A stretch of 24,835 bases of DNA from the NCBI GenBank assembly GCA_043228905.1, contig JBHGNT010000449.1, positions 1 through 24,835 of the forward strand, given 5' to 3'. The notes under the pieces were generated by a model. The model ran no database searches, was not told where the DNA came from, and was given only the letters and a program-made list of their open reading frames with translations. A program made the translations under genes and the position numbers. Positions 1 through 20,113 of this stretch are shown piece by piece. Origin of the DNA: Azolla caroliniana (taxonomy: Eukaryota > Plantae > Polypodiophyta). Each line of letters begins with the position of its first letter. Position 1 is the first letter of the stretch.

Positions 1-403
1 TTTTTAGGGTGTTGGTTCTCTCCACGAAAACGTTATCGGTGGTTGTGGCCACGAGGGGGTTTAGAATCCATTGCGACCAACATACGGACGACGACACGCG
101 TTTTCATTGTGATTACAAGATCCGTCGTCGTTGTGGACGCTGCAACCACCGGAGGAATATGAAGGTGGCACCATTCAAGGACAACATTTCTAGGTGAAAC
201 ATGCGTGGGTTGGTTGGTTCACACGATGATGAAAATGGTAGATAGACATGGGAATTTCATGTGGAATCATGTTTGTAGTAGGAGTTACGATCAGCCACTA
301 CTATTGCGCACATCATGGTACGGCGAGACACGGCATTGTATGAGGGTGGCTTCAATACAACATTGTGATGGCATCGACGTTTGACGAGTTTCGCGTTGCT
401 CGT

Positions 404-471
404 GAGAGAGATAGCGATAGATGGATAGAGATAGATATAGGTAGGGTGGGAGTGGGTAGTGTGCGTGTGGG
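404..471 (+). repeat. Degenerate GA/GATA simple-sequence tract followed by a G-run tract in the spacer, in each unit
   Basis: gagagagatagcgatagatggatagagatagatataggtagggtgggagtgggtag...tggg. Confidence 0.6.
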
Positions 472-545
472 CACGTTACCTAATCATGTGTGCGTGGAGT
501 TTCATTTTGCTTGTGCAATGAGCGAGCGAGGGCACGCGACCTGAT

Positions 546-565
546 CGTGCGTGCGTGCGTGCGTG
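546..565 (+). repeat. (CGTG)5 microsatellite downstream of the stop codon, in each unit
   Basis: cgtgcgtgcgtgcgtgcgtg read directly. Confidence 0.85.
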
Positions 566-690
566 TTGTGCGCGAGCGTGGGAGAAATATGATTGAGAGG
601 GTTATGAGAACGTCAAGACACCACACAGAGCACACCATTTACATTTACGATGTTCAGAAAGTGTATAGTTGAAAAAGTTATGTACGTTCT

Positions 691-1728
691 TTAAAAGTGG
701 CGAATACAAGCGCGTGGGCGAAGATCACATTGTTGGAGAAGGCGAGAGGTTGCCACGCTTAGAAGTTGTTCCTCCTCACCGGCCTTGAAACGACGACGTT
801 GTTCCTCATCTTGTCGTCCGGTCATGCGATAACGGCGCTCGTCCTCCTCGCGCTCGCTACTGTCTCTCTCTCGCTCGGCATCCTCTTCCCATTGACGACG
901 TTCCCTTGACACTTGGTTATGGCGGTGACCATCATTGCGTGCCTCTTCTCCGCTAATGTATAAGGCCTCGCGGAGGCGGTTGCAACGCTCTTCTACGGGG
1001 ATTTGTTCCACGTTCCTGCAGCATCTTTCGGAGGGCCTTGCATATCGGCTGATTTCATCCCAAGAGGTGCGACGGCTTCGTCCACGTTCTTCCTTCTCAT
1101 TACGTTCTTGTAGGTGGCGGACCTGCCTATCGACGAAGTTTTGGCACTCTTGCCTCAACTCTCGGTCTCGTGGCTCATCGCGATCGCGGCCGCGACGATC
1201 CCGTTCCTCTTCGGACTCTCTCTTGTTGTCTCTGCGACGTCCTTCATCGAGGGATCCTTCACGACGTCGGTCGCGCCTCTCCTGCTCGACATCCTCCTCC
1301 CTGCGTCGATCGCGCCTCTCGTCACGTGACTCATCACGATCGCGACCGCGACGATCCCGTTCCTCTTCGGACTCTCTCTTGTTGTCTCCGTAGCGCCCCT
1401 CCTCGATGGACCCCTCGCGACGTCCCCCGCGCCTCTCCTCATCGAAATCCTCCTCCCTGCGTCGATCGCGCCTCTCCTCACGTGGCTCATCGCGATCGTG
1501 ACTGCGACGATCCCGGTCCTCATCCGACTCTCTCTTGTTGTCTCTGTAGCGCCTCTCATCGATGGATCCCTCACGACGTCCGCTGCGCCTCTCCTCGTCG
1601 ACATCCTCCTCCCTACGTCGATCGCGCCTCTCCTCTTCGCGATCCCGTCCTACAGATCTAGCATTGGCCGCGCCGCAGGCGGCTAGCATGATAACCGCCA
1701 TGAGGAATATGATAGTGAGCTTCGCCAT
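691..1728 (-). CDS. Arg/Glu/Asp-rich 2S-albumin-like (prolamin superfamily) storage protein precursor, copy 1 (N271)
   Basis: 345-aa ORF with ATG in a good plant context (gcaATGGC). Hydrophobic signal peptide MAKLTIIFLMAVIMLAACGAANA with an AxA cleavage site. Cys at 195, 236-237, 249, 334 and 341 in albumin-like spacing (QECQNF...PSERCC...ERC...QQC...RAC). TATA/RY/ABRE promoter upstream. The family call is from motif recognition, not a database search. Confidence 0.85.
   Translation of the reverse strand: MAKLTIIFLMAVIMLAACGAANARSVGRDREEERRDRRREEDVDEERRSGRREGSIDERRYRDNKRESDEDRDRRSHDRDEPREERRDRRREEDFDEERRGGRREGSIEEGRYGDNKRESEEERDRRGRDRDESRDERRDRRREEDVEQERRDRRREGSLDEGRRRDNKRESEEERDRRGRDRDEPRDRELRQECQNFVDRQVRHLQERNEKEERGRSRRTSWDEISRYARPSERCCRNVEQIPVEERCNRLREALYISGEEARNDGHRHNQVSRERRQWEEDAERERDSSEREEDERRYRMTGRQDEEQRRRFKAGEEEQLLSVATSRLLQQCDLRPRACIRHF
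1168..1635 (-). repeat. Intragenic tandem repeat: 3 x 156 bp (3 x 52 aa, aa 32-187), present in every complete gene copy
   Basis: DNKRES occurs at aa 63, 115 and 167 (52-aa period). At DNA level 'actctctcttgttgtctc' recurs at a 156-bp period. Confidence 0.95.
1660..1728 (-). other. Signal peptide coding segment (aa 1-23), present in all complete copies
   Basis: Basic n-region (MAK), hydrophobic h-region (LTIIFLMAVIMLAA), small residues at -3/-1 (A-N-A|R). Confidence 0.85.
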
Positions 1729-1794
1729 TGCTTGTGTTCGGAACTACCCCGGTTCTCTCTCCGCCTATTTGAGTGTGTCATGGTTGATCCACCC

Positions 1795-1801
1795 TTATAT
1801 A
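1795..1801 (-). promoter_or_regulatory. TATA box (TATATAA) of copy 1
   Basis: Lies 67-73 nt upstream of the ATG, with an initiator-like CTCA about 30 nt downstream (near 1770). Recurs at 3956, 6117, 8252, 10413, 12574, 14735, 16896, 19057, 21218 and 23379. Confidence 0.75.
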
Positions 1802-1809
1802 CACAAGGC

Positions 1810-1832
1810 CATGCATGTCTAGTACATGCATG
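1810..1832. promoter_or_regulatory. Double RY/Sph element (CATGCATG x2), the B3-domain factor (ABI3/FUS3/LEC2) site
   Basis: Exact CATGCATG at 1810-1817 and 1825-1832, immediately upstream of the TATA box; repeated in every unit. Confidence 0.8.
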
Positions 1833-1839
1833 TCCCTTC

Positions 1840-1845
1840 CCACGT
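1840..1845 (-). promoter_or_regulatory. ABRE/G-box-like element (ACGTGG)
   Basis: Plus strand CCACGT, 8 nt from the second RY element; repeated in every unit. Confidence 0.55.
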
Positions 1846-1921
1846 CCATTCCTATAGACGTTAAAGGCATGATCCATACTTGGGCCACGGAAGAGACCAT
1901 TCACTTTTATCCACCCCCCTT

Positions 1922-1929
1922 TACGTGTC
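1922..1929 (+). promoter_or_regulatory. ABRE (TACGTGTC)
   Basis: Matches the PyACGTG(G/T)C ABRE consensus, about 195 bp upstream of the ATG; repeated in every unit. Confidence 0.6.
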
Positions 1930-2253
1930 CAGGATCCTCCTGCTTCGACCTACCATATCACTAGCCCTATACTCACCTCCATCACACCAGGAGTGGGATT
2001 ATGCACTTGGGCATTTCAAATCTACTAACCTATGGACGCTTCGTCCATATTGCAACGTAGACAGTATGTAACCTCATGATAGCCACCTACACATGTGATG
2101 CCATTGAGGTTGTAGAGTGCGTATGGGCCTCGTAAAACGAGGATAAGGTGGTGAGAAAAGGTTTTTAGGGTGTTGGTTCTCTCCACGAAAACGTTATCGG
2201 TGGTTGTGGCCACGAGGGGGTTTAGAATCCATTGCGACCAACATACGGACGAC

Positions 2254-2262
2254 GACACGCGT
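2254..2262 (-). promoter_or_regulatory. CE3-like coupling element (ACGCGTGTC)
   Basis: Plus strand GACACGCGT, about 530 bp upstream of the copy 1 ATG; also at 93-101 and in each unit. Confidence 0.4.
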
Positions 2263-2851
2263 TTTCATTGTGATTACAAGATCCGTCGTCGTTGTGGACG
2301 CTGCAACCACCGGAGGAATATGAAGGTGGCACCATTCAAGGACAACATTTCTAGGTGAAACATGCGTGGGTTGGTTGGTTCACACGATGATGAAAATGGT
2401 AGATAGACATGGGAATTTCATGTGGAATCATGTTTGTAGTAGGAGTTACGATCAGCCACTACTATTGCGCACATCATGGTACGGCGAGACACGGCATTGT
2501 ATGAGGGTGGCTTCAATACAACATTGTGATGGCATCGACGTTTGACGAGTTTCGCGTTGCTCGTGAGAGAGATAGCGATAGATGGATAGAGATAGATATA
2601 GGTAGGGTGGGAGTGGGTAGTGTGCGTGTGGGCACGTTACCTAATCATGTGTGCGTGGAGTTTCATTTTGCTTGTGCAATGAGCGAGCGAGGGCACGCGA
2701 CCTGATCGTGCGTGCGTGCGTGCGTGTTGTGCGCGAGCGTGGGAGAAATATGATTGAGAGGGTTATGAGAACGTCAAGACACCACACAGAGCACACCATT
2801 TACATTTACGATGTTCAGAAAGTGTATAGTTGAAAAAGTTATGTACGTTCT

Positions 2852-3889
2852 TTAAAAGTGGCGAATACAAGCGCGTGGGCGAAGATCACATTGTTGGAGA
2901 AGGCGAGAGGTTGCCACGCTTAGAAGTTGTTCCTCCTCACCGGCCTTGAAACGACGACGTTGTTCCTCATCTTGTCGTCCGGTCATGCGATAACGGCGCT
3001 CGTCCTCCTCGCGCTCGCTACTGTCTCTCTCTCGCTCGGCATCCTCTTCCCATTGACGACGTTCCCTTGACACTTGGTTATGGCGGTGACCATCATTGCG
3101 TGCCTCTTCTCCGCTAATGTATAAGGCCTCGCGGAGGCGGTTGCAACGCTCTTCTACGGGGATTTGTTCCACGTTCCTGCAGCATCTTTCGGAGGGCCTT
3201 GCATATCGGCTGATTTCATCCCAAGAGGTGCGACGGCTTCGTCCACGTTCTTCCTTCTCATTACGTTCTTGTAGGTGGCGGACCTGCCTATCGACGAAGT
3301 TTTGGCACTCTTGCCTCAACTCTCGGTCTCGTGGCTCATCGCGATCGCGGCCGCGACGATCCCGTTCCTCTTCGGACTCTCTCTTGTTGTCTCTGCGACG
3401 TCCTTCATCGAGGGATCCTTCACGACGTCGGTCGCGCCTCTCCTGCTCGACATCCTCCTCCCTGCGTCGATCGCGCCTCTCGTCACGTGACTCATCACGA
3501 TCGCGACCGCGACGATCCCGTTCCTCTTCGGACTCTCTCTTGTTGTCTCCGTAGCGCCCCTCCTCGATGGACCCCTCGCGACGTCCCCCGCGCCTCTCCT
3601 CATCGAAATCCTCCTCCCTGCGTCGATCGCGCCTCTCCTCACGTGGCTCATCGCGATCGTGACTGCGACGATCCCGGTCCTCATCCGACTCTCTCTTGTT
3701 GTCTCTGTAGCGCCTCTCATCGATGGATCCCTCACGACGTCCGCTGCGCCTCTCCTCGTCGACATCCTCCTCCCTACGTCGATCGCGCCTCTCCTCTTCG
3801 CGATCCCGTCCTACAGATCTAGCATTGGCCGCGCCGCAGGCGGCTAGCATGATAACCGCCATGAGGAATATGATAGTGAGCTTCGCCAT
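2852..3889 (-). CDS. 2S-albumin-like Arg-rich storage protein precursor, copy 2 (N271)
   Basis: Translation identical to copy 1. Confidence 0.85.
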   Translation of the reverse strand: MAKLTIIFLMAVIMLAACGAANARSVGRDREEERRDRRREEDVDEERRSGRREGSIDERRYRDNKRESDEDRDRRSHDRDEPREERRDRRREEDFDEERRGGRREGSIEEGRYGDNKRESEEERDRRGRDRDESRDERRDRRREEDVEQERRDRRREGSLDEGRRRDNKRESEEERDRRGRDRDEPRDRELRQECQNFVDRQVRHLQERNEKEERGRSRRTSWDEISRYARPSERCCRNVEQIPVEERCNRLREALYISGEEARNDGHRHNQVSRERRQWEEDAERERDSSEREEDERRYRMTGRQDEEQRRRFKAGEEEQLLSVATSRLLQQCDLRPRACIRHF

Positions 3890-5012
3890 TGCTTGTGTTC
3901 GGAACTACCCCGGTTCTCTCTCCGCCTATTTGAGTGTGTCATGGTTGATCCACCCTTATATACACAAGGCCATGCATGTCTAGTACATGCATGTCCCTTC
4001 CCACGTCCATTCCTATAGACGTTAATGGCATGATCCATACTTGGGCCACGGAAGAGACCATTCACTTTTATCCACCCCCCTTTACGTGTCCAGGATCCTC
4101 CTGCTTCGACCTACCATATCACTAGCCCTATACTCACCTCCATCACACCAGGAGTGGGATTATGCACTTGGGCATTTCAAATCTACTAACCTATGGACGC
4201 TTCGTCCATATTGCAACGTAGACAGTATGTAACCTCATGATAGCCACCTACACATGTGATGCCATTGAGGTTGTAGAGTGCGTATGGGCCTCGTAAAACG
4301 AGGATAAGGTGGTGAGAAAAGGTTTTTAGGGTGTTGGTTCTCTCCACGAAAACGTTATCGGTGGTTGTGGCCACGAGGGGGTTTAGAATCCATTGCGACC
4401 AACATACGGACGACGACACGCGTTTTCATTGTGATTACAAGATCCGTCGTCGTTGTGGACGCTGCAACCACCGGAGGAATATGAAGGTGGCACCATTCAA
4501 GGACAACATTTCTAGGTGAAACATGCGTGGGTTGGTTGGTTCACACGATGATGAAAATGGTAGATAGACATGGGAATTTCATGTGGAATCATGTTTGTAG
4601 TAGGAGTTACGATCAGCCACTACTATTGCGCACATCATGGTACGGCGAGACACGGCATTGTATGAGGGTGGCTTCAATACAACATTGTGATGGCATCGAC
4701 GTTTGACGAGTTTCGCGTTGCTCGTGAGAGAGATAGCGATAGATGGATAGAGATAGATATAGGTAGGGTGGGAGTGGGTAGTGTGCGTGTGGGCACGTTA
4801 CCTAATCATGTGTGCGTGGAGTTTCATTTTGCTTGTGCAATGAGCGAGCGAGGGCACGCGACCTGATCGTGCGTGCGTGCGTGCGTGTTGTGCGCGAGCG
4901 TGGGAGAAATATGATTGAGAGGGTTATGAGAACGTCAAGACACCACACAGAGCACACCATTTACATTTACGATGTTCAGAAAGTGTATAGTTGAAAAAGT
5001 TATGTACGTTCT

Positions 5013-6050
5013 TTAAAAGTGGCGAATACAAGCGCGTGGGCGAAGATCACATTGTTGGAGAAGGCGAGAGGTTGCCACGCTTAGAAGTTGTTCCTCCTCA
5101 CCGGCCTTGAAACGACGACGTTGTTCCTCATCTTGTCGTCCGGTCATGCGATAACGGCGCTCGTCCTCCTCGCGCTCGCTACTGTCTCTCTCTCGCTCGG
5201 CATCCTCTTCCCATTGACGACGTTCCCTTGACACTTGGTTATGGCGGTGACCATCATTGCGTGCCTCTTCTCCGCTAATGTATAAGGCCTCGCGGAGGCG
5301 GTTGCAACGCTCTTCTACGGGGATTTGTTCCACGTTCCTGCAGCATCTTTCGGAGGGCCTTGCATATCGGCTGATTTCATCCCAAGAGGTGCGACGGCTT
5401 CGTCCACGTTCTTCCTTCTCATTACGTTCTTGTAGGTGGCGGACCTGCCTATCGACGAAGTTTTGGCACTCTTGCCTCAACTCTCGGTCTCGTGGCTCAT
5501 CGCGATCGCGGCCGCGACGATCCCGTTCCTCTTCGGACTCTCTCTTGTTGTCTCTGCGACGTCCTTCATCGAGGGATCCTTCACGACGTCGGTCGCGCCT
5601 CTCCTGCTCGACATCCTCCTCCCTGCGTCGATCGCGCCTCTCGTCACGTGACTCATCACGATCGCGACCGCGACGATCCCGTTCCTCTTCGGACTCTCTC
5701 TTGTTGTCTCCGTAGCGCCCCTCCTCGATGGACCCCTCGCGACGTCCCCCGCGCCTCTCCTCATCGAAATCCTCCTCCCTGCGTCGATCGCGCCTCTCCT
5801 CACGTGGCTCATCGCGATCGTGACTGCGACGATCCCGGTCCTCATCCGACTCTCTCTTGTTGTCTCTGTAGCGCCTCTCATCGATGGATCCCTCACGACG
5901 TCCGCTGCGCCTCTCCTCGTCGACATCCTCCTCCCTACGTCGATCGCGCCTCTCCTCTTCGCGATCCCGTCCTACAGATCTAGCATTGGCCGCGCCGCAG
6001 GCGGCTAGCATGATAACCGCCATGAGGAATATGATAGTGAGCTTCGCCAT
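5013..6050 (-). CDS. 2S-albumin-like Arg-rich storage protein precursor, copy 3 (N271)
   Basis: Translation identical to copy 1. Confidence 0.85.
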   Translation of the reverse strand: MAKLTIIFLMAVIMLAACGAANARSVGRDREEERRDRRREEDVDEERRSGRREGSIDERRYRDNKRESDEDRDRRSHDRDEPREERRDRRREEDFDEERRGGRREGSIEEGRYGDNKRESEEERDRRGRDRDESRDERRDRRREEDVEQERRDRRREGSLDEGRRRDNKRESEEERDRRGRDRDEPRDRELRQECQNFVDRQVRHLQERNEKEERGRSRRTSWDEISRYARPSERCCRNVEQIPVEERCNRLREALYISGEEARNDGHRHNQVSRERRQWEEDAERERDSSEREEDERRYRMTGRQDEEQRRRFKAGEEEQLLSVATSRLLQQCDLRPRACIRHF

Positions 6051-7207
6051 TGCTTGTGTTCGGAACTACCCCGGTTCTCTCTCCGCCTATTTGAGTGTGT
6101 CATGGTTGATCCACCCTTATATACACAAGGCCATGCATGTCTAGTACATGCATGTCCCTTCCCACGTCCATTCCTATAGACGTTAATGGCATGATCCATA
6201 CTTGGGCCACGGAAGAGACCATTCACTTTTATCCACCCCCCTTTACGTGTCCAGGATCCTCCTGCTTCGACCTACCATATCACTAGCCCTATACTCACCT
6301 CCATCACACCAGGAGTGGGATTATGCACTTGGGCATTTCAAATCTACTAACCTATGGACGCTTCGTCCATATTGCAACGTAGACAGTATGTAACCTCATG
6401 ATAGCCACCTACACATGTGATGCCATTGAGGTTGTAGAGTGCGTATGGGCCTCGTAAAACGAGGATAAGGTGGTGAGAAAAGGTTTTTAGGGTGTTGGTT
6501 CTCTCCACGAAAACGTTATCGGTGGTTGTGGCCACGAGGGGGTTTAGAATCCATTGCGACCAACATACGGACGACGACACGCGTTTTCATTGTGATTACA
6601 AGATCCGTCGTCGTTGTGGACGCTGCAACCACCGGAGGAATATGAAGGTGGCACCATTCAAGGACAACATTTCTAGGTGAAACATGCGTGGGTTGGTTGG
6701 TTCACACGATGATGAAAATGGTAGATAGACATGGGAATTTCATGTGGAATCATGTTTGTAGTAGGAGTTACGATCAGCCACTACTATTGCGCACATCATG
6801 GTACGGCGAGACACGGCATTGTATGAGGGTGGCTTCAATACAACATTGTGATGGCATCGACGTTTGACGAGTTTCGCGTTGCTCGTGAGAGAGATAGCGA
6901 TAGATGGATAGAGATAGATATAGGTAGGGTGGGAGTGGGTAGTGTGCGTGTGGGCACGTTACCTAATCATGTGTGCGTGGAGTTTCATTTTGCTTGTGCA
7001 ATGAGCGAGCGAGGGCACGCGACCTGATCGTGCGTGCGTGCGTGCGTGTTGTGCGCGAGCGTGGGAGAAATATGATTGAGAGGGTTATGAGAACGTCAAG
7101 ACACCACACAGAGCACACCATTTACATTTACGATGTTCAGAAAGTGTATAGTTGAAAAAGTTATGTACGTTCTTTAAAAGTGGCGAATACAAGCGCGTGG
7201 GCGAAGA

Positions 7208-8185
7208 TCACATTGTTGGAGAAGGCGAGAGGTTGCCACGCTTAAAACGACGACGTTGTTCCTCATCTTGTCGTCCGGTCATGCGATAACGGCGCTCGTC
7301 CTCCTCGCGCTCGCTACTGTCTCTCTCTCGCTCGGCATCCTCTTCCCATTGACGACGTTCCCTTGACACTTGGTTATGGCGGTGACCATCATTGCGTGCC
7401 TCTTCTCCGCTAATGTATAAGGCCTCGCGGAGGCGGTTGCAACGCTCTTCTACGGGGATTTGTTCCACGTTCCTGCAGCATCTTTCGGAGGGCCTTGCAT
7501 ATCGGCTGATTTCATCCCAAGAGGTGCGACGGCTTCGTCCACGTTCTTCCTTCTCATTACGTTCTTGTAGGTGGCGGACCTGCCTATCGACGAAGTTTTG
7601 GCACTCTTGCCTCAACTCTCGGTCTCGTGGCTCATCGCGATCGCGGCCGCGACGATCCCGTTCCTCTTCGGACTCTCTCTTGTTGTCTCTGCGACGTCCT
7701 TCATCGAGGGATCCTTCACGACGTCGGTCGCGCCTCTCCTGCTCGACATCCTCCTCCCTGCGTCGATCGCGCCTCTCGTCACGTGACTCATCACGATCGC
7801 GACCGCGACGATCCCGTTCCTCTTCGGACTCTCTCTTGTTGTCTCCGTAGCGCCCCTCCTCGATGGACCCCTCGCGACGTCCCCCGCGCCTCTCCTCATC
7901 GAAATCCTCCTCCCTGCGTCGATCGCGCCTCTCCTCACGTGGCTCATCGCGATCGTGACTGCGACGATCCCGGTCCTCATCCGACTCTCTCTTGTTGTCT
8001 CTGTAGCGCCTCTCATCGATGGATCCCTCACGACGTCCGCTGCGCCTCTCCTCGTCGACATCCTCCTCCCTACGTCGATCGCGCCTCTCCTCTTCGCGAT
8101 CCCGTCCTACAGATCTAGCATTGGCCGCGCCGCAGGCGGCTAGCATGATAACCGCCATGAGGAATATGATAGTGAGCTTCGCCAT
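7208..8185 (-). pseudogene. Copy 4, frameshifted near the C-terminus (325 aa, lacks the last two Cys); probable defective copy
   Basis: 26-bp deletion at junction 7244/7245 (removes the equivalent of 762-787 in copy 1). The ORF ends ...RRRFKRGNLSPSPTM* instead of ...RRRFKAGEEEQ...QQCDLRPRACIRHF*. The promoter is intact, so it may still be expressed. Confidence 0.75.
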
Positions 8186-9308
8186 TGCTTGTGTTCGGAA
8201 CTACCCCGGTTCTCTCTCCGCCTATTTGAGTGTGTCATGGTTGATCCACCCTTATATACACAAGGCCATGCATGTCTAGTACATGCATGTCCCTTCCCAC
8301 GTCCATTCCTATAGACGTTAATGGCATGATCCATACTTGGGCCACGGAAGAGACCATTCACTTTTATCCACCCCCCTTTACGTGTCCAGGATCCTCCTGC
8401 TTCGACCTACCATATCACTAGCCCTATACTCACCTCCATCACACCAGGAGTGGGATTATGCACTTGGGCATTTCAAATCTACTAACCTATGGACGCTTCG
8501 TCCATATTGCAACGTAGACAGTATGTAACCTCATGATAGCCACCTACACATGTGATGCCATTGAGGTTGTAGAGTGCGTATGGGCCTCGTAAAACGAGGA
8601 TAAGGTGGTGAGAAAAGGTTTTTAGGGTGTTGGTTCTCTCCACGAAAACGTTATCGGTGGTTGTGGCCACGAGGGGGTTTAGAATCCATTGCGACCAACA
8701 TACGGACGACGACACGCGTTTTCATTGTGATTACAAGATCCGTCGTCGTTGTGGACGCTGCAACCACCGGAGGAATATGAAGGTGGCACCATTCAAGGAC
8801 AACATTTCTAGGTGAAACATGCGTGGGTTGGTTGGTTCACACGATGATGAAAATGGTAGATAGACATGGGAATTTCATGTGGAATCATGTTTGTAGTAGG
8901 AGTTACGATCAGCCACTACTATTGCGCACATCATGGTACGGCGAGACACGGCATTGTATGAGGGTGGCTTCAATACAACATTGTGATGGCATCGACGTTT
9001 GACGAGTTTCGCGTTGCTCGTGAGAGAGATAGCGATAGATGGATAGAGATAGATATAGGTAGGGTGGGAGTGGGTAGTGTGCGTGTGGGCACGTTACCTA
9101 ATCATGTGTGCGTGGAGTTTCATTTTGCTTGTGCAATGAGCGAGCGAGGGCACGCGACCTGATCGTGCGTGCGTGCGTGCGTGTTGTGCGCGAGCGTGGG
9201 AGAAATATGATTGAGAGGGTTATGAGAACGTCAAGACACCACACAGAGCACACCATTTACATTTACGATGTTCAGAAAGTGTATAGTTGAAAAAGTTATG
9301 TACGTTCT

Positions 9309-10346
9309 TTAAAAGTGGCGAATACAAGCGCGTGGGCGAAGATCACATTGTTGGAGAAGGCGAGAGGTTGCCACGCTTAGAAGTTGTTCCTCCTCACCGG
9401 CCTTGAAACGACGACGTTGTTCCTCATCTTGTCGTCCGGTCATGCGATAACGGCGCTCGTCCTCCTCGCGCTCGCTACTGTCTCTCTCTCGCTCGGCATC
9501 CTCTTCCCATTGACGACGTTCCCTTGACACTTGGTTATGGCGGTGACCATCATTGCGTGCCTCTTCTCCGCTAATGTATAAGGCCTCGCGGAGGCGGTTG
9601 CAACGCTCTTCTACGGGGATTTGTTCCACGTTCCTGCAGCATCTTTCGGAGGGCCTTGCATATCGGCTGATTTCATCCCAAGAGGTGCGACGGCTTCGTC
9701 CACGTTCTTCCTTCTCATTACGTTCTTGTAGGTGGCGGACCTGCCTATCGACGAAGTTTTGGCACTCTTGCCTCAACTCTCGGTCTCGTGGCTCATCGCG
9801 ATCGCGGCCGCGACGATCCCGTTCCTCTTCGGACTCTCTCTTGTTGTCTCTGCGACGTCCTTCATCGAGGGATCCTTCACGACGTCGGTCGCGCCTCTCC
9901 TGCTCGACATCCTCCTCCCTGCGTCGATCGCGCCTCTCGTCACGTGACTCATCACGATCGCGACCGCGACGATCCCGTTCCTCTTCGGACTCTCTCTTGT
10001 TGTCTCCGTAGCGCCCCTCCTCGATGGACCCCTCGCGACGTCCCCCGCGCCTCTCCTCATCGAAATCCTCCTCCCTGCGTCGATCGCGCCTCTCCTCACG
10101 TGGCTCATCGCGATCGTGACTGCGACGATCCCGGTCCTCATCCGACTCTCTCTTGTTGTCTCTGTAGCGCCTCTCATCGATGGATCCCTCACGACGTCCG
10201 CTGCGCCTCTCCTCGTCGACATCCTCCTCCCTACGTCGATCGCGCCTCTCCTCTTCGCGATCCCGTCCTACAGATCTAGCATTGGCCGCGCCGCAGGCGG
10301 CTAGCATGATAACCGCCATGAGGAATATGATAGTGAGCTTCGCCAT
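9309..10346 (-). CDS. 2S-albumin-like Arg-rich storage protein precursor, copy 5 (N271)
   Basis: Translation identical to copy 1. Confidence 0.85.
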   Translation of the reverse strand: MAKLTIIFLMAVIMLAACGAANARSVGRDREEERRDRRREEDVDEERRSGRREGSIDERRYRDNKRESDEDRDRRSHDRDEPREERRDRRREEDFDEERRGGRREGSIEEGRYGDNKRESEEERDRRGRDRDESRDERRDRRREEDVEQERRDRRREGSLDEGRRRDNKRESEEERDRRGRDRDEPRDRELRQECQNFVDRQVRHLQERNEKEERGRSRRTSWDEISRYARPSERCCRNVEQIPVEERCNRLREALYISGEEARNDGHRHNQVSRERRQWEEDAERERDSSEREEDERRYRMTGRQDEEQRRRFKAGEEEQLLSVATSRLLQQCDLRPRACIRHF

Positions 10347-11469
10347 TGCTTGTGTTCGGAACTACCCCGGTTCTCTCTCCGCCTATTTGAGTGTGTCATG
10401 GTTGATCCACCCTTATATACACAAGGCCATGCATGTCTAGTACATGCATGTCCCTTCCCACGTCCATTCCTATAGACGTTAATGGCATGATCCATACTTG
10501 GGCCACGGAAGAGACCATTCACTTTTATCCACCCCCCTTTACGTGTCCAGGATCCTCCTGCTTCGACCTACCATATCACTAGCCCTATACTCACCTCCAT
10601 CACACCAGGAGTGGGATTATGCACTTGGGCATTTCAAATCTACTAACCTATGGACGCTTCGTCCATATTGCAACGTAGACAGTATGTAACCTCATGATAG
10701 CCACCTACACATGTGATGCCATTGAGGTTGTAGAGTGCGTATGGGCCTCGTAAAACGAGGATAAGGTGGTGAGAAAAGGTTTTTAGGGTGTTGGTTCTCT
10801 CCACGAAAACGTTATCGGTGGTTGTGGCCACGAGGGGGTTTAGAATCCATTGCGACCAACATACGGACGACGACACGCGTTTTCATTGTGATTACAAGAT
10901 CCGTCGTCGTTGTGGACGCTGCAACCACCGGAGGAATATGAAGGTGGCACCATTCAAGGACAACATTTCTAGGTGAAACATGCGTGGGTTGGTTGGTTCA
11001 CACGATGATGAAAATGGTAGATAGACATGGGAATTTCATGTGGAATCATGTTTGTAGTAGGAGTTACGATCAGCCACTACTATTGCGCACATCATGGTAC
11101 GGCGAGACACGGCATTGTATGAGGGTGGCTTCAATACAACATTGTGATGGCATCGACGTTTGACGAGTTTCGCGTTGCTCGTGAGAGAGATAGCGATAGA
11201 TGGATAGAGATAGATATAGGTAGGGTGGGAGTGGGTAGTGTGCGTGTGGGCACGTTACCTAATCATGTGTGCGTGGAGTTTCATTTTGCTTGTGCAATGA
11301 GCGAGCGAGGGCACGCGACCTGATCGTGCGTGCGTGCGTGCGTGTTGTGCGCGAGCGTGGGAGAAATATGATTGAGAGGGTTATGAGAACGTCAAGACAC
11401 CACACAGAGCACACCATTTACATTTACGATGTTCAGAAAGTGTATAGTTGAAAAAGTTATGTACGTTCT

Positions 11470-12507
11470 TTAAAAGTGGCGAATACAAGCGCGTGGGCGA
11501 AGATCACATTGTTGGAGAAGGCGAGAGGTTGCCACGCTTAGAAGTTGTTCCTCCTCACCGGCCTTGAAACGACGACGTTGTTCCTCATCTTGTCGTCCGG
11601 TCATGCGATAACGGCGCTCGTCCTCCTCGCGCTCGCTACTGTCTCTCTCTCGCTCGGCATCCTCTTCCCATTGACGACGTTCCCTTGACACTTGGTTATG
11701 GCGGTGACCATCATTGCGTGCCTCTTCTCCGCTAATGTATAAGGCCTCGCGGAGGCGGTTGCAACGCTCTTCTACGGGGATTTGTTCCACGTTCCTGCAG
11801 CATCTTTCGGAGGGCCTTGCATATCGGCTGATTTCATCCCAAGAGGTGCGACGGCTTCGTCCACGTTCTTCCTTCTCATTACGTTCTTGTAGGTGGCGGA
11901 CCTGCCTATCGACGAAGTTTTGGCACTCTTGCCTCAACTCTCGGTCTCGTGGCTCATCGCGATCGCGGCCGCGACGATCCCGTTCCTCTTCGGACTCTCT
12001 CTTGTTGTCTCTGCGACGTCCTTCATCGAGGGATCCTTCACGACGTCGGTCGCGCCTCTCCTGCTCGACATCCTCCTCCCTGCGTCGATCGCGCCTCTCG
12101 TCACGTGACTCATCACGATCGCGACCGCGACGATCCCGTTCCTCTTCGGACTCTCTCTTGTTGTCTCCGTAGCGCCCCTCCTCGATGGACCCCTCGCGAC
12201 GTCCCCCGCGCCTCTCCTCATCGAAATCCTCCTCCCTGCGTCGATCGCGCCTCTCCTCACGTGGCTCATCGCGATCGTGACTGCGACGATCCCGGTCCTC
12301 ATCCGACTCTCTCTTGTTGTCTCTGTAGCGCCTCTCATCGATGGATCCCTCACGACGTCCGCTGCGCCTCTCCTCGTCGACATCCTCCTCCCTACGTCGA
12401 TCGCGCCTCTCCTCTTCGCGATCCCGTCCTACAGATCTAGCATTGGCCGCGCCGCAGGCGGCTAGCATGATAACCGCCATGAGGAATATGATAGTGAGCT
12501 TCGCCAT
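11470..12507 (-). CDS. 2S-albumin-like Arg-rich storage protein precursor, copy 6 (N271)
   Basis: Translation identical to copy 1. Confidence 0.85.
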   Translation of the reverse strand: MAKLTIIFLMAVIMLAACGAANARSVGRDREEERRDRRREEDVDEERRSGRREGSIDERRYRDNKRESDEDRDRRSHDRDEPREERRDRRREEDFDEERRGGRREGSIEEGRYGDNKRESEEERDRRGRDRDESRDERRDRRREEDVEQERRDRRREGSLDEGRRRDNKRESEEERDRRGRDRDEPRDRELRQECQNFVDRQVRHLQERNEKEERGRSRRTSWDEISRYARPSERCCRNVEQIPVEERCNRLREALYISGEEARNDGHRHNQVSRERRQWEEDAERERDSSEREEDERRYRMTGRQDEEQRRRFKAGEEEQLLSVATSRLLQQCDLRPRACIRHF

Positions 12508-13630
12508 TGCTTGTGTTCGGAACTACCCCGGTTCTCTCTCCGCCTATTTGAGTGTGTCATGGTTGATCCACCCTTATATACACAAGGCCATGCATGTCTA
12601 GTACATGCATGTCCCTTCCCACGTCCATTCCTATAGACGTTAATGGCATGATCCATACTTGGGCCACGGAAGAGACCATTCACTTTTATCCACCCCCCTT
12701 TACGTGTCCAGGATCCTCCTGCTTCGACCTACCATATCACTAGCCCTATACTCACCTCCATCACACCAGGAGTGGGATTATGCACTTGGGCATTTCAAAT
12801 CTACTAACCTATGGACGCTTCGTCCATATTGCAACGTAGACAGTATGTAACCTCATGATAGCCACCTACACATGTGATGCCATTGAGGTTGTAGAGTGCG
12901 TATGGGCCTCGTAAAACGAGGATAAGGTGGTGAGAAAAGGTTTTTAGGGTGTTGGTTCTCTCCACGAAAACGTTATCGGTGGTTGTGGCCACGAGGGGGT
13001 TTAGAATCCATTGCGACCAACATACGGACGACGACACGCGTTTTCATTGTGATTACAAGATCCGTCGTCGTTGTGGACGCTGCAACCACCGGAGGAATAT
13101 GAAGGTGGCACCATTCAAGGACAACATTTCTAGGTGAAACATGCGTGGGTTGGTTGGTTCACACGATGATGAAAATGGTAGATAGACATGGGAATTTCAT
13201 GTGGAATCATGTTTGTAGTAGGAGTTACGATCAGCCACTACTATTGCGCACATCATGGTACGGCGAGACACGGCATTGTATGAGGGTGGCTTCAATACAA
13301 CATTGTGATGGCATCGACGTTTGACGAGTTTCGCGTTGCTCGTGAGAGAGATAGCGATAGATGGATAGAGATAGATATAGGTAGGGTGGGAGTGGGTAGT
13401 GTGCGTGTGGGCACGTTACCTAATCATGTGTGCGTGGAGTTTCATTTTGCTTGTGCAATGAGCGAGCGAGGGCACGCGACCTGATCGTGCGTGCGTGCGT
13501 GCGTGTTGTGCGCGAGCGTGGGAGAAATATGATTGAGAGGGTTATGAGAACGTCAAGACACCACACAGAGCACACCATTTACATTTACGATGTTCAGAAA
13601 GTGTATAGTTGAAAAAGTTATGTACGTTCT

Positions 13631-14668
13631 TTAAAAGTGGCGAATACAAGCGCGTGGGCGAAGATCACATTGTTGGAGAAGGCGAGAGGTTGCCACGCTT
13701 AGAAGTTGTTCCTCCTCACCGGCCTTGAAACGACGACGTTGTTCCTCATCTTGTCGTCCGGTCATGCGATAACGGCGCTCGTCCTCCTCGCGCTCGCTAC
13801 TGTCTCTCTCTCGCTCGGCATCCTCTTCCCATTGACGACGTTCCCTTGACACTTGGCTATGGCGGTGACCATCATTGCGTGCCTCTTCTCCGCTAATGTA
13901 TAAGGCCTCGCGGAGGCGGTTGCAACGCTCTTCTACGGGGATTTGTTCCACGTTCCTGCAGCATCTTTCGGAGGGCCTTGCATATCGGCTGATTTCATCC
14001 CAAGAGGTGCGACGGCTTCGTCCACGTTCTTCCTTCTCATTACGTTCTTGTAGGTGGCGGACCTGCCTATCGACGAAGTTTTGGCACTCTTGCCTCAACT
14101 CTCGGTCTCGTGGCTCATCGCGATCGTGGCCGCGACGATCCCGTTCCTCTTCGGACTCTCTCTTGTTGTCTCTGCGACGTCCTTCATCGAGGGATCCTTC
14201 ACGACGTCGGTCGCGCCTCTCCTGCTCGACATCCTCCTCCCTGCGTCGATCGCGCCTCTCGTCACGTGACTCATCACGATCGCGACCGCGACGATCCCGT
14301 TCCTCTTCGGACTCTCTCTTGTTGTCTCCGTAGCGCCCCTCCTCGATGGACCCCTCGCGACGTCCCCCGCGCCTCTCCTCATCGAAATCCTCCTCCCTGC
14401 GTCGATCGCGCCTCTCCTCACGTGGCTCATCGCGATCGTGACTGCGACGATCCCGGTCCTCATCCGACTCTCTCTTGTTGTCTCTGTAGCGCCTCTCATC
14501 GATGGATCCCTCACGACGTCCGCTGCGCCTCTCCTCGTCGACATCCTCCTCCCTACGTCGATCGCGCCTCTCCTCTTCGCGATCCCGTCCTACAGATCTA
14601 GCATTGGCCGCGCCGCAGGCGGCTAGCATGATAACCGCCATGAGGAATATGATAGTGAGCTTCGCCAT
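13631..14668 (-). CDS. 2S-albumin-like Arg-rich storage protein precursor, copy 7 (R181H, N271S)
   Basis: 345 aa. Differs from copy 1 by C>T at 14127 (R181H) and T>C at 13857 (N271S), + strand bases. Confidence 0.85.
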   Translation of the reverse strand: MAKLTIIFLMAVIMLAACGAANARSVGRDREEERRDRRREEDVDEERRSGRREGSIDERRYRDNKRESDEDRDRRSHDRDEPREERRDRRREEDFDEERRGGRREGSIEEGRYGDNKRESEEERDRRGRDRDESRDERRDRRREEDVEQERRDRRREGSLDEGRRRDNKRESEEERDRRGHDRDEPRDRELRQECQNFVDRQVRHLQERNEKEERGRSRRTSWDEISRYARPSERCCRNVEQIPVEERCNRLREALYISGEEARNDGHRHSQVSRERRQWEEDAERERDSSEREEDERRYRMTGRQDEEQRRRFKAGEEEQLLSVATSRLLQQCDLRPRACIRHF

Positions 14669-15791
14669 TGCTTGTGTTCGGAACTACCCCGGTTCTCTCT
14701 CCGCCTATTTGAGTGTGTCATGGTTGATCCACCCTTATATACACAAGGCCATGCATGTCTAGTACATGCATGTCCCTTCCCACGTCCATTCCTATAGACG
14801 TTAATGGCATGATCCATACTTGGGCCACGGAAGAGACCATTCACTTTTATCCACCCCCCTTTACGTGTCCAGGATCCTCCTGCTTCGACCTACCATATCA
14901 CTAGCCCTATACTCACCTCCATCACACCAGGAGTGGGATTATGCACTTGGGCATTTCAAATCTACTAACCTATGGACGCTTCGTCCATATTGCAACGTAG
15001 ACAGTATGTAACCTCATGATAGCCACCTACACATGTGATGCCATTGAGGTTGTAGAGTGCGTATGGGCCTCGTAAAACGAGGATAAGGTGGTGAGAAAAG
15101 GTTTTTAGGGTGTTGGTTCTCTCCACGAAAACGTTATCGGTGGTTGTGGCCACGAGGGGGTTTAGAATCCATTGCGACCAACATACGGACGACGACACGC
15201 GTTTTCATTGTGATTACAAGATCCGTCGTCGTTGTGGACGCTGCAACCACCGGAGGAATATGAAGGTGGCACCATTCAAGGACAACATTTCTAGGTGAAA
15301 CATGCGTGGGTTGGTTGGTTCACACGATGATGAAAATGGTAGATAGACATGGGAATTTCATGTGGAATCATGTTTGTAGTAGGAGTTACGATCAGCCACT
15401 ACTATTGCGCACATCATGGTACGGCGAGACACGGCATTGTATGAGGGTGGCTTCAATACAACATTGTGATGGCATCGACGTTTGACGAGTTTCGCGTTGC
15501 TCGTGAGAGAGATAGCGATAGATGGATAGAGATAGATATAGGTAGGGTGGGAGTGGGTAGTGTGCGTGTGGGCACGTTACCTAATCATGTGTGCGTGGAG
15601 TTTCATTTTGCTTGTGCAATGAGCGAGCGAGGGCACGCGACCTGATCGTGCGTGCGTGCGTGCGTGTTGTGCGCGAGCGTGGGAGAAATATGATTGAGAG
15701 GGTTATGAGAACGTCAAGACACCACACAGAGCACACCATTTACATTTACGATGTTCAGAAAGTGTATAGTTGAAAAAGTTATGTACGTTCT

Positions 15792-16829
15792 TTAAAAGTG
15801 GCGAATACAAGCGCGTGGGCGAAGATCACATTGTTGGAGAAGGCGAGAGGTTGCCACGCTTAGAAGTTGTTCCTCCTCACCGGCCTTGAAACGACGACGT
15901 TGTTCCTCATCTTGTCGTCCGGTCATGCGATAACGGCGCTCGTCCTCCTCGCGCTCGCTACTGTCTCTCTCTCGCTCGGCATCCTCTTCCCATTGACGAC
16001 GTTCCCTTGACACTTGGCTATGGCGGTGACCATCATTGCGTGCCTCTTCTCCGCTAATGTATAAGGCCTCGCGGAGGCGGTTGCAACGCTCTTCTACGGG
16101 GATTTGTTCCACGTTCCTGCAGCATCTTTCGGAGGGCCTTGCATATCGGCTGATTTCATCCCAAGAGGTGCGACGGCTTCGTCCACGTTCTTCCTTCTCA
16201 TTACGTTCTTGTAGGTGGCGGACCTGCCTATCGACGAAGTTTTGGCACTCTTGCCTCAACTCTCGGTCTCGTGGCTCATCGCGATCGCGGCCGCGACGAT
16301 CCCGTTCCTCTTCGGACTCTCTCTTGTTGTCTCTGCGACGTCCTTCATCGAGGGATCCTTCACGACGTCGGTCGCGCCTCTCCTGCTCGACATCCTCCTC
16401 CCTGCGTCGATCGCGCCTCTCGTCACGTGACTCATCACGATCGCGACCGCGACGATCCCGTTCCTCTTCGGACTCTCTCTTGTTGTCTCCGTAGCGCCCC
16501 TCCTCGATGGACCCCTCGCGACGTCCCCCGCGCCTCTCCTCATCGAAATCCTCCTCCCTGCGTCGATCGCGCCTCTCCTCACGTGGCTCATCGCGATCGT
16601 GACTGCGACGATCCCGGTCCTCATCCGACTCTCTCTTGTTGTCTCTGTAGCGCCTCTCATCGATGGATCCCTCACGACGTCCGCTGCGCCTCTCCTCGTC
16701 GACATCCTCCTCCCTACGTCGATCGCGCCTCTCCTCTTCGCGATCCCGTCCTACAGATCTAGCATTGGCCGCGCCGCAGGCGGCTAGCATGATAACCGCC
16801 ATGAGGAATATGATAGTGAGCTTCGCCAT
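15792..16829 (-). CDS. 2S-albumin-like Arg-rich storage protein precursor, copy 8 (N271S)
   Basis: 345 aa; T>C at 16018. Confidence 0.85.
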   Translation of the reverse strand: MAKLTIIFLMAVIMLAACGAANARSVGRDREEERRDRRREEDVDEERRSGRREGSIDERRYRDNKRESDEDRDRRSHDRDEPREERRDRRREEDFDEERRGGRREGSIEEGRYGDNKRESEEERDRRGRDRDESRDERRDRRREEDVEQERRDRRREGSLDEGRRRDNKRESEEERDRRGRDRDEPRDRELRQECQNFVDRQVRHLQERNEKEERGRSRRTSWDEISRYARPSERCCRNVEQIPVEERCNRLREALYISGEEARNDGHRHSQVSRERRQWEEDAERERDSSEREEDERRYRMTGRQDEEQRRRFKAGEEEQLLSVATSRLLQQCDLRPRACIRHF

Positions 16830-17952
16830 TGCTTGTGTTCGGAACTACCCCGGTTCTCTCTCCGCCTATTTGAGTGTGTCATGGTTGATCCACCCTTATA
16901 TACACAAGGCCATGCATGTCTAGTACATGCATGTCCCTTCCCACGTCCATTCCTATAGACGTTAATGGCATGATCCATACTTGGGCCACGGAAGAGACCA
17001 TTCACTTTTATCCACCCCCCTTTACGTGTCCAGGATCCTCCTGCTTCGACCTACCATATCACTAGCCCTATACTCACCTCCATCACACCAGGAGTGGGAT
17101 TATGCACTTGGGCATTTCAAATCTACTAACCTATGGACGCTTCGTCCATATTGCAACGTAGACAGTATGTAACCTCATGATAGCCACCTACACATGTGAT
17201 GCCATTGAGGTTGTAGAGTGCGTATGGGCCTCGTAAAACGAGGATAAGGTGGTGAGAAAAGGTTTTTAGGGTGTTGGTTCTCTCCACGAAAACGTTATCG
17301 GTGGTTGTGGCCACGAGGGGGTTTAGAATCCATTGCGACCAACATACGGACGACGACACGCGTTTTCATTGTGATTACAAGATCCGTCGTCGTTGTGGAC
17401 GCTGCAACCACCGGAGGAATATGAAGGTGGCACCATTCAAGGACAACATTTCTAGGTGAAACATGCGTGGGTTGGTTGGTTCACACGATGATGAAAATGG
17501 TAGATAGACATGGGAATTTCATGTGGAATCATGTTTGTAGTAGGAGTTACGATCAGCCACTACTATTGCGCACATCATGGTACGGCGAGACACGGCATTG
17601 TATGAGGGTGGCTTCAATACAACATTGTGATGGCATCGACGTTTGACGAGTTTCGCGTTGCTCGTGAGAGAGATAGCGATAGATGGATAGAGATAGATAT
17701 AGGTAGGGTGGGAGTGGGTAGTGTGCGTGTGGGCACGTTACCTAATCATGTGTGCGTGGAGTTTCATTTTGCTTGTGCAATGAGCGAGCGAGGGCACGCG
17801 ACCTGATCGTGCGTGCGTGCGTGCGTGTTGTGCGCGAGCGTGGGAGAAATATGATTGAGAGGGTTATGAGAACGTCAAGACACCACACAGAGCACACCAT
17901 TTACATTTACGATGTTCAGAAAGTGTATAGTTGAAAAAGTTATGTACGTTCT

Positions 17953-18990
17953 TTAAAAGTGGCGAATACAAGCGCGTGGGCGAAGATCACATTGTTGGAG
18001 AAGGCGAGAGGTTGCCACGCTTAGAAGTTGTTCCTCCTCACCGGCCTTGAAACGACGACGTTGTTCCTCATCTTGTCGTCCGGTCATGCGATAACGGCGC
18101 TCGTCCTCCTCGCGCTCGCTACTGTCTCTCTCTCGCTCGGCATCCTCTTCCCATTGACGACGTTCCCTTGACACTTGGTTATGGCGGTGACCATCATTGC
18201 GTGCCTCTTCTCCGCTAATGTATAAGGCCTCGCGGAGGCGGTTGCAACGCTCTTCTACGGGGATTTGTTCCACGTTCCTGCAGCATCTTTCGGAGGGCCT
18301 TGCATATCGGCTGATTTCATCCCAAGAGGTGCGACGGCTTCGTCCACGTTCTTCCTTCTCATTACGTTCTTGTAGGTGGCGGACCTGCCTATCGACGAAG
18401 TTTTGGCACTCTTGCCTCAACTCTCGGTCTCGTGGCTCATCGCGATCGCGGCCGCGACGATCCCGTTCCTCTTCGGACTCTCTCTTGTTGTCTCTGCGAC
18501 GTCCTTCATCGAGGGATCCTTCACGACGTCGGTCGCGCCTCTCCTGCTCGACATCCTCCTCCCTGCGTCGATCGCGCCTCTCGTCACGTGACTCATCACG
18601 ATCGCGACCGCGACGATCCCGTTCCTCTTCGGACTCTCTCTTGTTGTCTCCGTAGCGCCCCTCCTCGATGGACCCCTCGCGACGTCCCCCGCGCCTCTCC
18701 TCATCGAAATCCTCCTCCCTGCGTCGATCGCGCCTCTCCTCACGTGGCTCATCGCGATCGTGACTGCGACGATCCCGGTCCTCATCCGACTCTCTCTTGT
18801 TGTCTCTGTAGCGCCTCTCATCGATGGATCCCTCACGACGTCCGCTGCGCCTCTCCTCGTCGACATCCTCCTCCCTACGTCGATCGCGCCTCTCCTCTTC
18901 GCGATCCCGTCCTACAGATCTAGCATTGGCCGCGCCGCAGGCGGCTAGCATGATAACCGCCATGAGGAATATGATAGTGAGCTTCGCCAT
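17953..18990 (-). CDS. 2S-albumin-like Arg-rich storage protein precursor, copy 9 (N271)
   Basis: Translation identical to copy 1; T at 18179. Confidence 0.85.
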   Translation of the reverse strand: MAKLTIIFLMAVIMLAACGAANARSVGRDREEERRDRRREEDVDEERRSGRREGSIDERRYRDNKRESDEDRDRRSHDRDEPREERRDRRREEDFDEERRGGRREGSIEEGRYGDNKRESEEERDRRGRDRDESRDERRDRRREEDVEQERRDRRREGSLDEGRRRDNKRESEEERDRRGRDRDEPRDRELRQECQNFVDRQVRHLQERNEKEERGRSRRTSWDEISRYARPSERCCRNVEQIPVEERCNRLREALYISGEEARNDGHRHNQVSRERRQWEEDAERERDSSEREEDERRYRMTGRQDEEQRRRFKAGEEEQLLSVATSRLLQQCDLRPRACIRHF

Positions 18991-20113
18991 TGCTTGTGTT
19001 CGGAACTACCCCGGTTCTCTCTCCGCCTATTTGAGTGTGTCATGGTTGATCCACCCTTATATACACAAGGCCATGCATGTCTAGTACATGCATGTCCCTT
19101 CCCACGTCCATTCCTATAGACGTTAATGGCATGATCCATACTTGGGCCACGGAAGAGACCATTCACTTTTATCCACCCCCCTTTACGTGTCCAGGATCCT
19201 CCTGCTTCGACCTACCATATCACTAGCCCTATACTCACCTCCATCACACCAGGAGTGGGATTATGCACTTGGGCATTTCAAATCTACTAACCTATGGACG
19301 CTTCGTCCATATTGCAACGTAGACAGTATGTAACCTCATGATAGCCACCTACACATGTGATGCCATTGAGGTTGTAGAGTGCGTATGGGCCTCGTAAAAC
19401 GAGGATAAGGTGGTGAGAAAAGGTTTTTAGGGTGTTGGTTCTCTCCACGAAAACGTTATCGGTGGTTGTGGCCACGAGGGGGTTTAGAATCCATTGCGAC
19501 CAACATACGGACGACGACACGCGTTTTCATTGTGATTACAAGATCCGTCGTCGTTGTGGACGCTGCAACCACCGGAGGAATATGAAGGTGGCACCATTCA
19601 AGGACAACATTTCTAGGTGAAACATGCGTGGGTTGGTTGGTTCACACGATGATGAAAATGGTAGATAGACATGGGAATTTCATGTGGAATCATGTTTGTA
19701 GTAGGAGTTACGATCAGCCACTACTATTGCGCACATCATGGTACGGCGAGACACGGCATTGTATGAGGGTGGCTTCAATACAACATTGTGATGGCATCGA
19801 CGTTTGACGAGTTTCGCGTTGCTCGTGAGAGAGATAGCGATAGATGGATAGAGATAGATATAGGTAGGGTGGGAGTGGGTAGTGTGCGTGTGGGCACGTT
19901 ACCTAATCATGTGTGCGTGGAGTTTCATTTTGCTTGTGCAATGAGCGAGCGAGGGCACGCGACCTGATCGTGCGTGCGTGCGTGCGTGTTGTGCGCGAGC
20001 GTGGGAGAAATATGATTGAGAGGGTTATGAGAACGTCAAGACACCACACAGAGCACACCATTTACATTTACGATGTTCAGAAAGTGTATAGTTGAAAAAG
20101 TTATGTACGTTCT

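Follow-up and report, generated by a model that had tools for sequence, protein, structure and literature searches.

A several-hundred-copy array of an arginine- and glutamate-rich 2S-albumin-like gene in Azolla caroliniana, likely a spore nitrogen store

The window analysed here is the whole of a 24,835-nt contig of Azolla caroliniana (JBHGNT010000449.1, C449). An intronless open reading frame of 345 amino acids on its reverse strand (691..1728, -; type I) had been described, in an original prediction, as encoding an unusual albumin in which a long polyampholyte is fused to a 2S-albumin-like core. The locus raises the question of what such a protein is and why its gene is not alone: the reading frame is real, but it belongs to one of 11.5 copies in the window, and arrays of hundreds of copies were not part of that prediction. 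The account that we regard as probable is that the window samples a homogenised, several-hundred-copy array of an Arg/Glu-rich 2S-albumin-like gene, which likely serves as a spore nitrogen store of this water fern and was likely amplified for dosage.

Protein layout and origin of the charged extension

The predicted layout, in which a hydrophobic start is followed by a Cys-free mixed-charge stretch and then by a Cys domain, held when hydropathy and composition were examined. The N-terminus is a likely ER signal peptide (aa 1-23; 1660..1728, -) as judged by Kyte-Doolittle hydropathy only, the 11-mer value reaching 3.0 at aa 4-14 and the segment ending in ANA before an R; it is conserved in the type II paralogue described below (dN/dS 0.10 across the first 39 codons). 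Three 52-aa Arg/Glu/Asp repeats follow at aa 32-187 (1168..1635, -), with a DNA period of 156 bp, 3.0 copies and 87% matches, and each contains one Asn, in DNKR. The hand count given originally for repeat 1 (aa 32-83; 18 R, 1 K, 11 E and 10 D) was exact, as was the total of six Lys in the protein. Residues 24-191 comprise 0 Cys, 59 R, 3 K, 28 D and 39 E; 77% are charged, the net charge is -0.03 per residue, and the extension has three aromatic residues. Overlapping open reading frames of 145, 149 and 86 aa were set aside as presumed shadows of the repeat.

The Cys domain (aa 188-345; 691..1167, -) has six Cys (C195, C236, C237, C249, C334 and C341), with an extra one at position 18 in the signal peptide. 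A second charged insert, recognised by its composition and by low pLDDT in the model, lies between the B and C regions (aa 256-320; 769..963, -). The mature chain is 29% Arg, 21% Glu and 11% Asp, and nitrogen makes up 22% of its mass. The architecture is therefore as predicted, but the nitrogen-rich composition is not confined to the extension, because the Cys domain, including its 65-aa Arg/Glu insert, is itself 46% charged and 21% N.

The view of the extension as a fused domain was not borne out. Type II (261 aa) carries the charged N-terminal region about once, and N content is about 21-22% across the whole albumin-like family and still 20.7% in the repeat-less type III. The type I repeats differ from one another by a dS of 0.22-0.33, against 0.96 between the type I and type II domains, which suggests that internal duplication enlarged the extension once the two arrays had separated. 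From these comparisons, the type I extension is a recent internal tandem expansion and not a fused foreign domain. The protein had also been likened to cyanophycin as a nitrogen-dense reserve. Its 22% N by mass, against 25.8% for the Asp-Arg unit of cyanophycin, favours that comparison; however, its acid residue is mostly Glu, and the analogy is therefore one of composition only.

It had been suggested that the mixed-charge repeats might drive condensation. The charges are well mixed (kappa 0.088, compared with 0.108 +/- 0.034 in shuffles) and, with three aromatic residues, give no special support to self-condensation. A broader alternative, which extends a secondary idea of the original prediction, is that the polyampholyte is the functional part of the protein, which would then be a desiccation protectant, a condensate scaffold or a component of the spore wall. 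A Cys-free, near-neutral and 77% charged extension that is under some purifying selection would suit such a role, and Azolla sporocarps, which are resting stages with nutrient reserves, are described as surviving drying and freezing (PMC8386757). However, repeat number varies freely among copies and paralogues (0, about 1, 3, and 3 plus 13 aa), the mixing of charges and scarcity of aromatics disfavour a scaffold, and a signal peptide with an albumin core fits vacuolar storage. No LEA family was among the Pfam matches of the type I protein at E<=10. A protectant or scaffold role is considered quite unlikely.

Family membership of the Cys domain

Residues 188-345 matched PF00234 at 22.7 bits (E 1.2e-4), a narrow pass over the cut-off of 21.7, and the type II domain scored 23.2 bits. 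Whole proteins scored below the cut-off: 19.9 for type I, 21.6 for type II, 17.1 for type III and 20.7 for a database relative, P0002. A scan of the genome with the same profile returned 25 LTP/HyPRP-type loci, and the arrays were not among them. Conotoxin and Zip rows among the Pfam results (E 0.06-0.7) were dismissed as signal-peptide or His-rich noise.

Relatives were sought in collections that are mostly microbial. HMMER over 1.84 billion representatives found two: P0001 (45 aa), which is close to the type II C-terminus, and P0002 (246 aa), which resembles type III and was found again by a profile search. A third candidate from the profile search, P0004 (E 2.5), was rejected as a compositional match. 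Word-index searches gave 0 of 420 candidates for aa 190-345 and 0 of 43 for the 158-aa domain, and no conifer albumin, with which the PSERCC segment had been likened to pine albumins, was among the matches of any search. A single-sequence search of the PDB likewise gave 0 matches. A profile built from four relatives matched eight PDB sequences at E<=10, all of them 2S albumins or cereal inhibitors, the best being RATI-type inhibitors (E 0.03).

The six Cys occur in the same order (C..CC..C..C..C) in types I, II and III and in P0002. The complete eight-cysteine motif of a strict 2S albumin was not found: six of the eight Cys are present, and all four relatives lack both the initial Cys and the one that opens CXC (here E-R-C). 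The two missing Cys are presumably partners of one bridge in the 2S disulfide pattern, which would leave three bridges. Other features of strict 2S albumins are present, namely an ER signal peptide (by hydropathy only) and intronless genes in tandem. The albumin-like core of the original prediction was thus upheld, through the narrow PF00234 match and the PDB profile matches, as a prolamin-superfamily domain, but with an incomplete albumin motif. Because only six of the eight motif Cys are present, the domain is classed by profile and Cys pattern as a 2S-albumin-like member of the prolamin superfamily and not as a strict 2S albumin.

Two AlphaFold models, made from four-sequence alignments, have helices in the expected order at low confidence (pLDDT 64.5 and 61.4). 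With these models (pLDDT 61-65), Foldseek gave no match at E<=0.001, and a VIA fold search gave best Z scores of 4.6 and 4.9 to unrelated chains, with the LTP DIR1 at rank 19 (Z 3.6); a 2S albumin fold was matched by neither model. The nearest ESM Atlas cluster was 'Prolamin' (scores 0.79 and 0.82), which is treated as a lead only.

Arrays, copy number and selection

The entire window (1..24835) is a head-to-tail array of 11.5 copies of a 2161-bp unit consisting of gene, promoter and spacer, with unit starts at 1, 2162, 4323, 6484, 8619, 10780, 12941, 15102, 17263, 19424, 21585 and 23746. Further full-length type I copies lie at 2852, 5013, 9309, 11470, 13631, 15792, 17953, 20114 and 22275, and 10 of 11 copies are full length. 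The units differ at only three variable sites and by one 26-bp deletion, which in copy 4 (7208..8185, -) shifts the frame to give a product of 325 aa from which the last two Cys are lost. No Rfam family was found in window positions 1-4400. In the 523-Mb assembly, a 29-mer from the type I domain has 169 occurrences (control 0), and most type I copies are nearly identical and lie on unplaced contigs.

A second contig, C59 (161 kb), contains 2200-bp type I units spanning 130 kb and a single-copy left flank. A variant there encodes 358 aa, with 13 aa added beyond the three repeats. Among C59 copies with an intact start, 31 of 40 are full length and 9 are not. The C59 array contains distinct variants, insertions and divergence that is graded along its length. 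A fructose-bisphosphate aldolase gene (C59:14,450-16,200, -), 75-82% identical to a paralogue on C5, lies about 2.7 kb from the start of the array. Transposon insertions occupy C59 positions 70,529-84,562, 99,211-106,534, 117,644-125,007, 129,944-142,028 and 151,052-159,277; they include LTR elements with near-identical LTRs (one a tandem pair sharing an LTR, another with 802-bp LTRs that are 99.6% identical) and a 12-kb element with terminal inverted repeats. Such young insertions could be used to date segments of the array. Decayed type I pieces (87-97% identical) occupy 13.06-13.10 Mb of chromosome C12. An assembly gap lies about 12 kb away, and this region is the likely home of the unplaced type I contigs. 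Dispersed orphan or decayed copies were seen at C21:10,387,968, C12:12,734,778, C12:12,987,741 and C6:14,817,295.

Near-identical copies on unplaced contigs could have arisen if a few genes had been multiplied by the assembler. Copy number was also gauged from public sequencing runs, as the rough ratio of contig depth in the unit to that in the adjacent single-copy flank (C59 left flank plus first unit). Flank depths were 17-18 in run X15, 35-40 in X11, about 16-24 summed over alleles in X12 and 11.7 in X22, and unit depths were in the thousands. Per haploid genome, these rough contig-depth ratios give 362-429 (X15) and 360-459 (X11) type I copies in the two runs from this species, and 196-296 (X12, organism B) and 274-339 (X22, organism D) in runs with other organism labels. 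X11 may be the assembled genotype, since its long flank contigs show no differences. The unit thus stands several hundred times above the single-copy flank in four of four runs, and the head-to-tail joint was recovered in the independent run X12 at a depth of 3372. With the distinct variants, insertions and graded divergence of C59 also against it, an assembly artefact is scarcely credible.

Two features of these runs are recorded separately. In run X12 the array is present in two types, one at a depth of about 3260 and the other at about 1390, and the flank in two alleles, a picture expected of a hybrid or heterozygote. Run X21 (organism C) reaches a depth of about 6000 in only 4 of 30 bins; it is uncalibrated and was left out of the copy counts.

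Type II (261 aa) forms an array of its own with a unit of 1643-1652 bp (about 1.65 kb). A 26-mer from it occurs in 436 exact copies in the assembly, a degenerate motif search gave 614 matches (control 0), most of them type II, and 18 of the 18 type II copies examined were full length. Type II copies, which have an extra Cys56, were seen on C113, C109, C162, C238 and other contigs, with a decayed edge at C3:10,402,997-10,413,450. Odd spacings of about 16-24 kb in C117 and 2140 bp in C138 possibly represent array edges or longer unit variants. Together the two arrays occupy about 1.1 Mb of the assembly and hold about 600 gene copies. Type III is a single gene of about 256 aa (C3:10,293,410-10,294,180, -), without repeats and with His/Glu/Arg inserts. 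It lies about 110 kb away from the edge of the type II array and is a candidate for the ancestral, unamplified state. Cupin genes, with any storage globulins counted among them, were not amplified to a similar degree (78 of 96 candidates in the assembly matched). At C8:17.10-18.02 Mb, over 20 genes with a cupin domain, probably of the germin-like kind, lie clustered together.

Types I and II align only across the coding sequence and about 130 nt of promoter, their spacers having diverged. In the domain, type I and type II differ by a dS of 0.96 and a dN of 0.21 (dN/dS about 0.2), and in the repeats dN/dS is 0.29-0.46. Between species, 17 of the 29 full-depth coding changes listed for X22, from a table with 126 further rows, are synonymous, against 22% expected (p 2e-5), and in this run high depth covers the coding sequence and proximal promoter only, the spacer being without high-depth cover. 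These values indicate that the coding sequence of the array genes is under purifying selection.

The arrays could instead be a gene-derived satellite, amplified by drift or selfishly, in which most copies are methylated and silent, function being left to a few of them or to type III. Within C59, new variants look unselected (25 nonsynonymous and 8 synonymous, where 22% synonymous is expected), and C-to-T changes, reckoned per site, are 4-7 times commoner in CG/CHG contexts than in CHH, a pattern typical of methylated DNA, although the counts are small. Interruption by LTR elements and DNA transposons, damaged copies and decay at the array edges also fit a satellite. Because the new C59 variants are not depleted for amino-acid changes and carry this methylation-type bias, some of the array is probably silent, a situation also seen in rDNA. 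However, CpG in the units is not depleted (o/e 1.18-1.25, compared with 0.18-0.70 at 25 LTP-family loci; some transposon inserts also exceed 1), and most copies are intact in each set (10/11, 31/40 and 18/18). A satellite would also have to keep coding sequence and promoter, and nothing else, in two separate arrays while the spacers diverged, and to hold dN/dS at about 0.2 over a dS of about 1 with a synonymous excess between species. A satellite origin is accordingly held to be unlikely, and selected amplification of a functional gene is preferred.

The suggestion that the host is not an angiosperm was supported by a cyanobacterial-type squalene-hopene cyclase (SHC) and by 22 chromosome-scale contigs in the 523-Mb assembly. 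On these sequence markers a fern is highly probable and an Azolla-like one probable. For Azolla, n=22. The SHC gene is intronless (C21:2,875,796-2,877,931, -; 771 bits) and, among the 80 loci kept, is 50-59% identical to cyanobacterial SHCs, compared with 35-45% for named non-cyanobacterial ones; one MAG labelled Gracilibacteria and several unnamed MAGs are 53-57% identical to it. Fern SHCs are reported to nest within cyanobacteria, whereas those of bryophytes do not and seed plants are without SHC; the same source gives small fern genomes only in Salviniales, and about twice the chromosome number of relatives for Azolla (PMC6786969).

Promoter, proposed role and known systems

A TATA box lies at 1795..1801 (-), 73 nt upstream of the ATG, with counterparts at -77 (type II) and -70 (type III). 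Two RY elements (CATGCATG) are located at 1810-1817 and 1825-1832 (-), at -89 and -104, and none of 5000 shuffles reached two within the proximal 200 nt. An ACGT-core (ABRE-like) box, which has no separate chance estimate, is found at 1840..1845 (-), at -117. RY motifs recur at -108/-91 in type II and at -91/-165 in type III. RY boxes bind ABI3/LEC2-type B3 factors. The maturation-stage reserve that had been envisaged is in keeping with the promoter, which by its sequence is of maturation type (RY plus TATA) and conserved in types II and III. Promoters of the RY/ABRE kind also drive LEA genes, a point in favour of the protectant alternative. Fern AFL genes are described as expressed in mature sporangia (PMC5379062).

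Conservation of the RY-type promoter in all three paralogues also bears on a vegetative or symbiotic role, in which the protein would store fixed nitrogen in fronds or act on leaf-cavity microbes. A host with a nitrogen-fixing symbiont would presumably have surplus nitrogen, and some 2S albumins are reported to be antifungal (PMC4366206). The conserved promoter speaks against such a role, however, and the near-neutral net charge is unlike that of cationic antimicrobial albumins, as far as can be reasoned from composition. A vegetative or symbiotic function is very unlikely.

A spore nitrogen store would be expected to work as follows. As sporangia or spores mature, B3 factors of the ABI3/LEC2 type would act on the RY boxes to activate the genes, and the type I protein would enter the ER, where three disulfides would form. 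It would then be stored in vacuolar protein bodies and perhaps be cut behind the Asn of each repeat. With four N per residue, Arg would carry the nitrogen, Glu and Asp would neutralise its charge, and the Arg nitrogen would be released at germination. Unequal crossover or conversion would keep the arrays homogenised and erode their edges. The most speculative step concerns dosage. The megaspore is one large haploid cell that very few nuclei would have to stock, and gene copies may for this reason replace the numerous and often polyploid cells in which a seed lays down its reserves. In its fullest form, the proposal is that two storage-albumin paralogues are permanent rDNA-like arrays (about 600 copies assembled, perhaps at least 800 in the genome), selected across species to supply a 22%-nitrogen megaspore reserve, comparable to the ribosome supply of animal oocytes; this is put forward tentatively, as somewhat less than an even prospect. 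The arrays make it testable whether heterospory, with its large, well-stocked megaspores, drove the amplification.

With 2S albumins (PF00234) the family shares a signal peptide, an N-terminal extension, an A-B-C Cys pattern with CC and an RY-type promoter, and 2S albumin genes are usually several, intronless and in tandem (PMC4366206). It is unlike them in having six motif Cys rather than eight and, in type I, long Arg/Glu inserts; the type I protein runs to 345 aa, whereas the precursor of mabinlin II has about 155 (PMC4366206). A survey of 19 plant species gives 0-21 2S albumin genes per genome in its Supplementary Data 7 (PMC10006428), compared with the roughly 600 assembled copies here. 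Azolla filiculoides and every other seed-free plant score 0 in the same source, which concludes that seed storage proteins arose in seed plants (PMC10006428); the existence in a fern of genes that combine an albumin-like domain with RY promoters speaks against that origin. If correct, the present reading would place 2S-type storage genes, under the RY promoter logic of seeds, in the genome of a seed-free plant. Cereal alpha-globulin and HMW glutenin have a long, variable B-C loop and have lost motif Cys (PMC4973428). The Azolla protein resembles these, and alpha-amylase/trypsin inhibitors, in its ABC domain, long B-C loop and loss of motif Cys; it differs from the cereal members in lineage and in that the type I inserts are rich in Arg/Glu/Asp and not in Pro/Gln.

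Among ferns, the nearest parallel is matteuccin, reportedly described by Rodin and Rask in 1990 as a small, 2S-albumin-related 2.2S storage protein in spores of the ostrich fern. The likeness (fern, spore, relation to 2S albumins) is by description only, the spore role being putative here, and the arrays give a genetic handle on that old observation. The literature searched, with most subscription journals and fern genome supplements outside its scope, gave no description of these arrays, of gene arrays for matteuccin or of an Azolla albumin. Like cyanophycin, the protein balances Arg with acids (N 22-23% against 25.8%; C:N 2.3-2.5 against 2.0). Unlike cyanophycin, a non-ribosomal Asp backbone with Arg side chains, it is encoded by an open reading frame, dominated by Glu, secretory and joined to a Cys domain.

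Taken by itself, the architecture of the protein departs only modestly from a known storage family; what surprises is the pair of rDNA-like arrays with hundreds of selected copies, shared with related organisms. Arrays kept uniform over hundreds of copies are well known for rRNA and histone genes. If the proposed role is right, about 600 assembled copies of a storage gene specific to one tissue, arranged as two arrays that related organisms share, would add a new example of concerted evolution serving dosage, and such arrays may have been missed elsewhere because they collapse or are repeat-masked in assemblies. Like rDNA, 5S and histone arrays, those of Azolla consist of hundreds of near-identical head-to-tail units with conserved coding sequence, diverged spacers, decayed edges and transposon insertions. 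Unlike them, and with no Rfam match, the repeated unit is a putatively tissue-specific, RNA polymerase II-type gene for a secretory protein.
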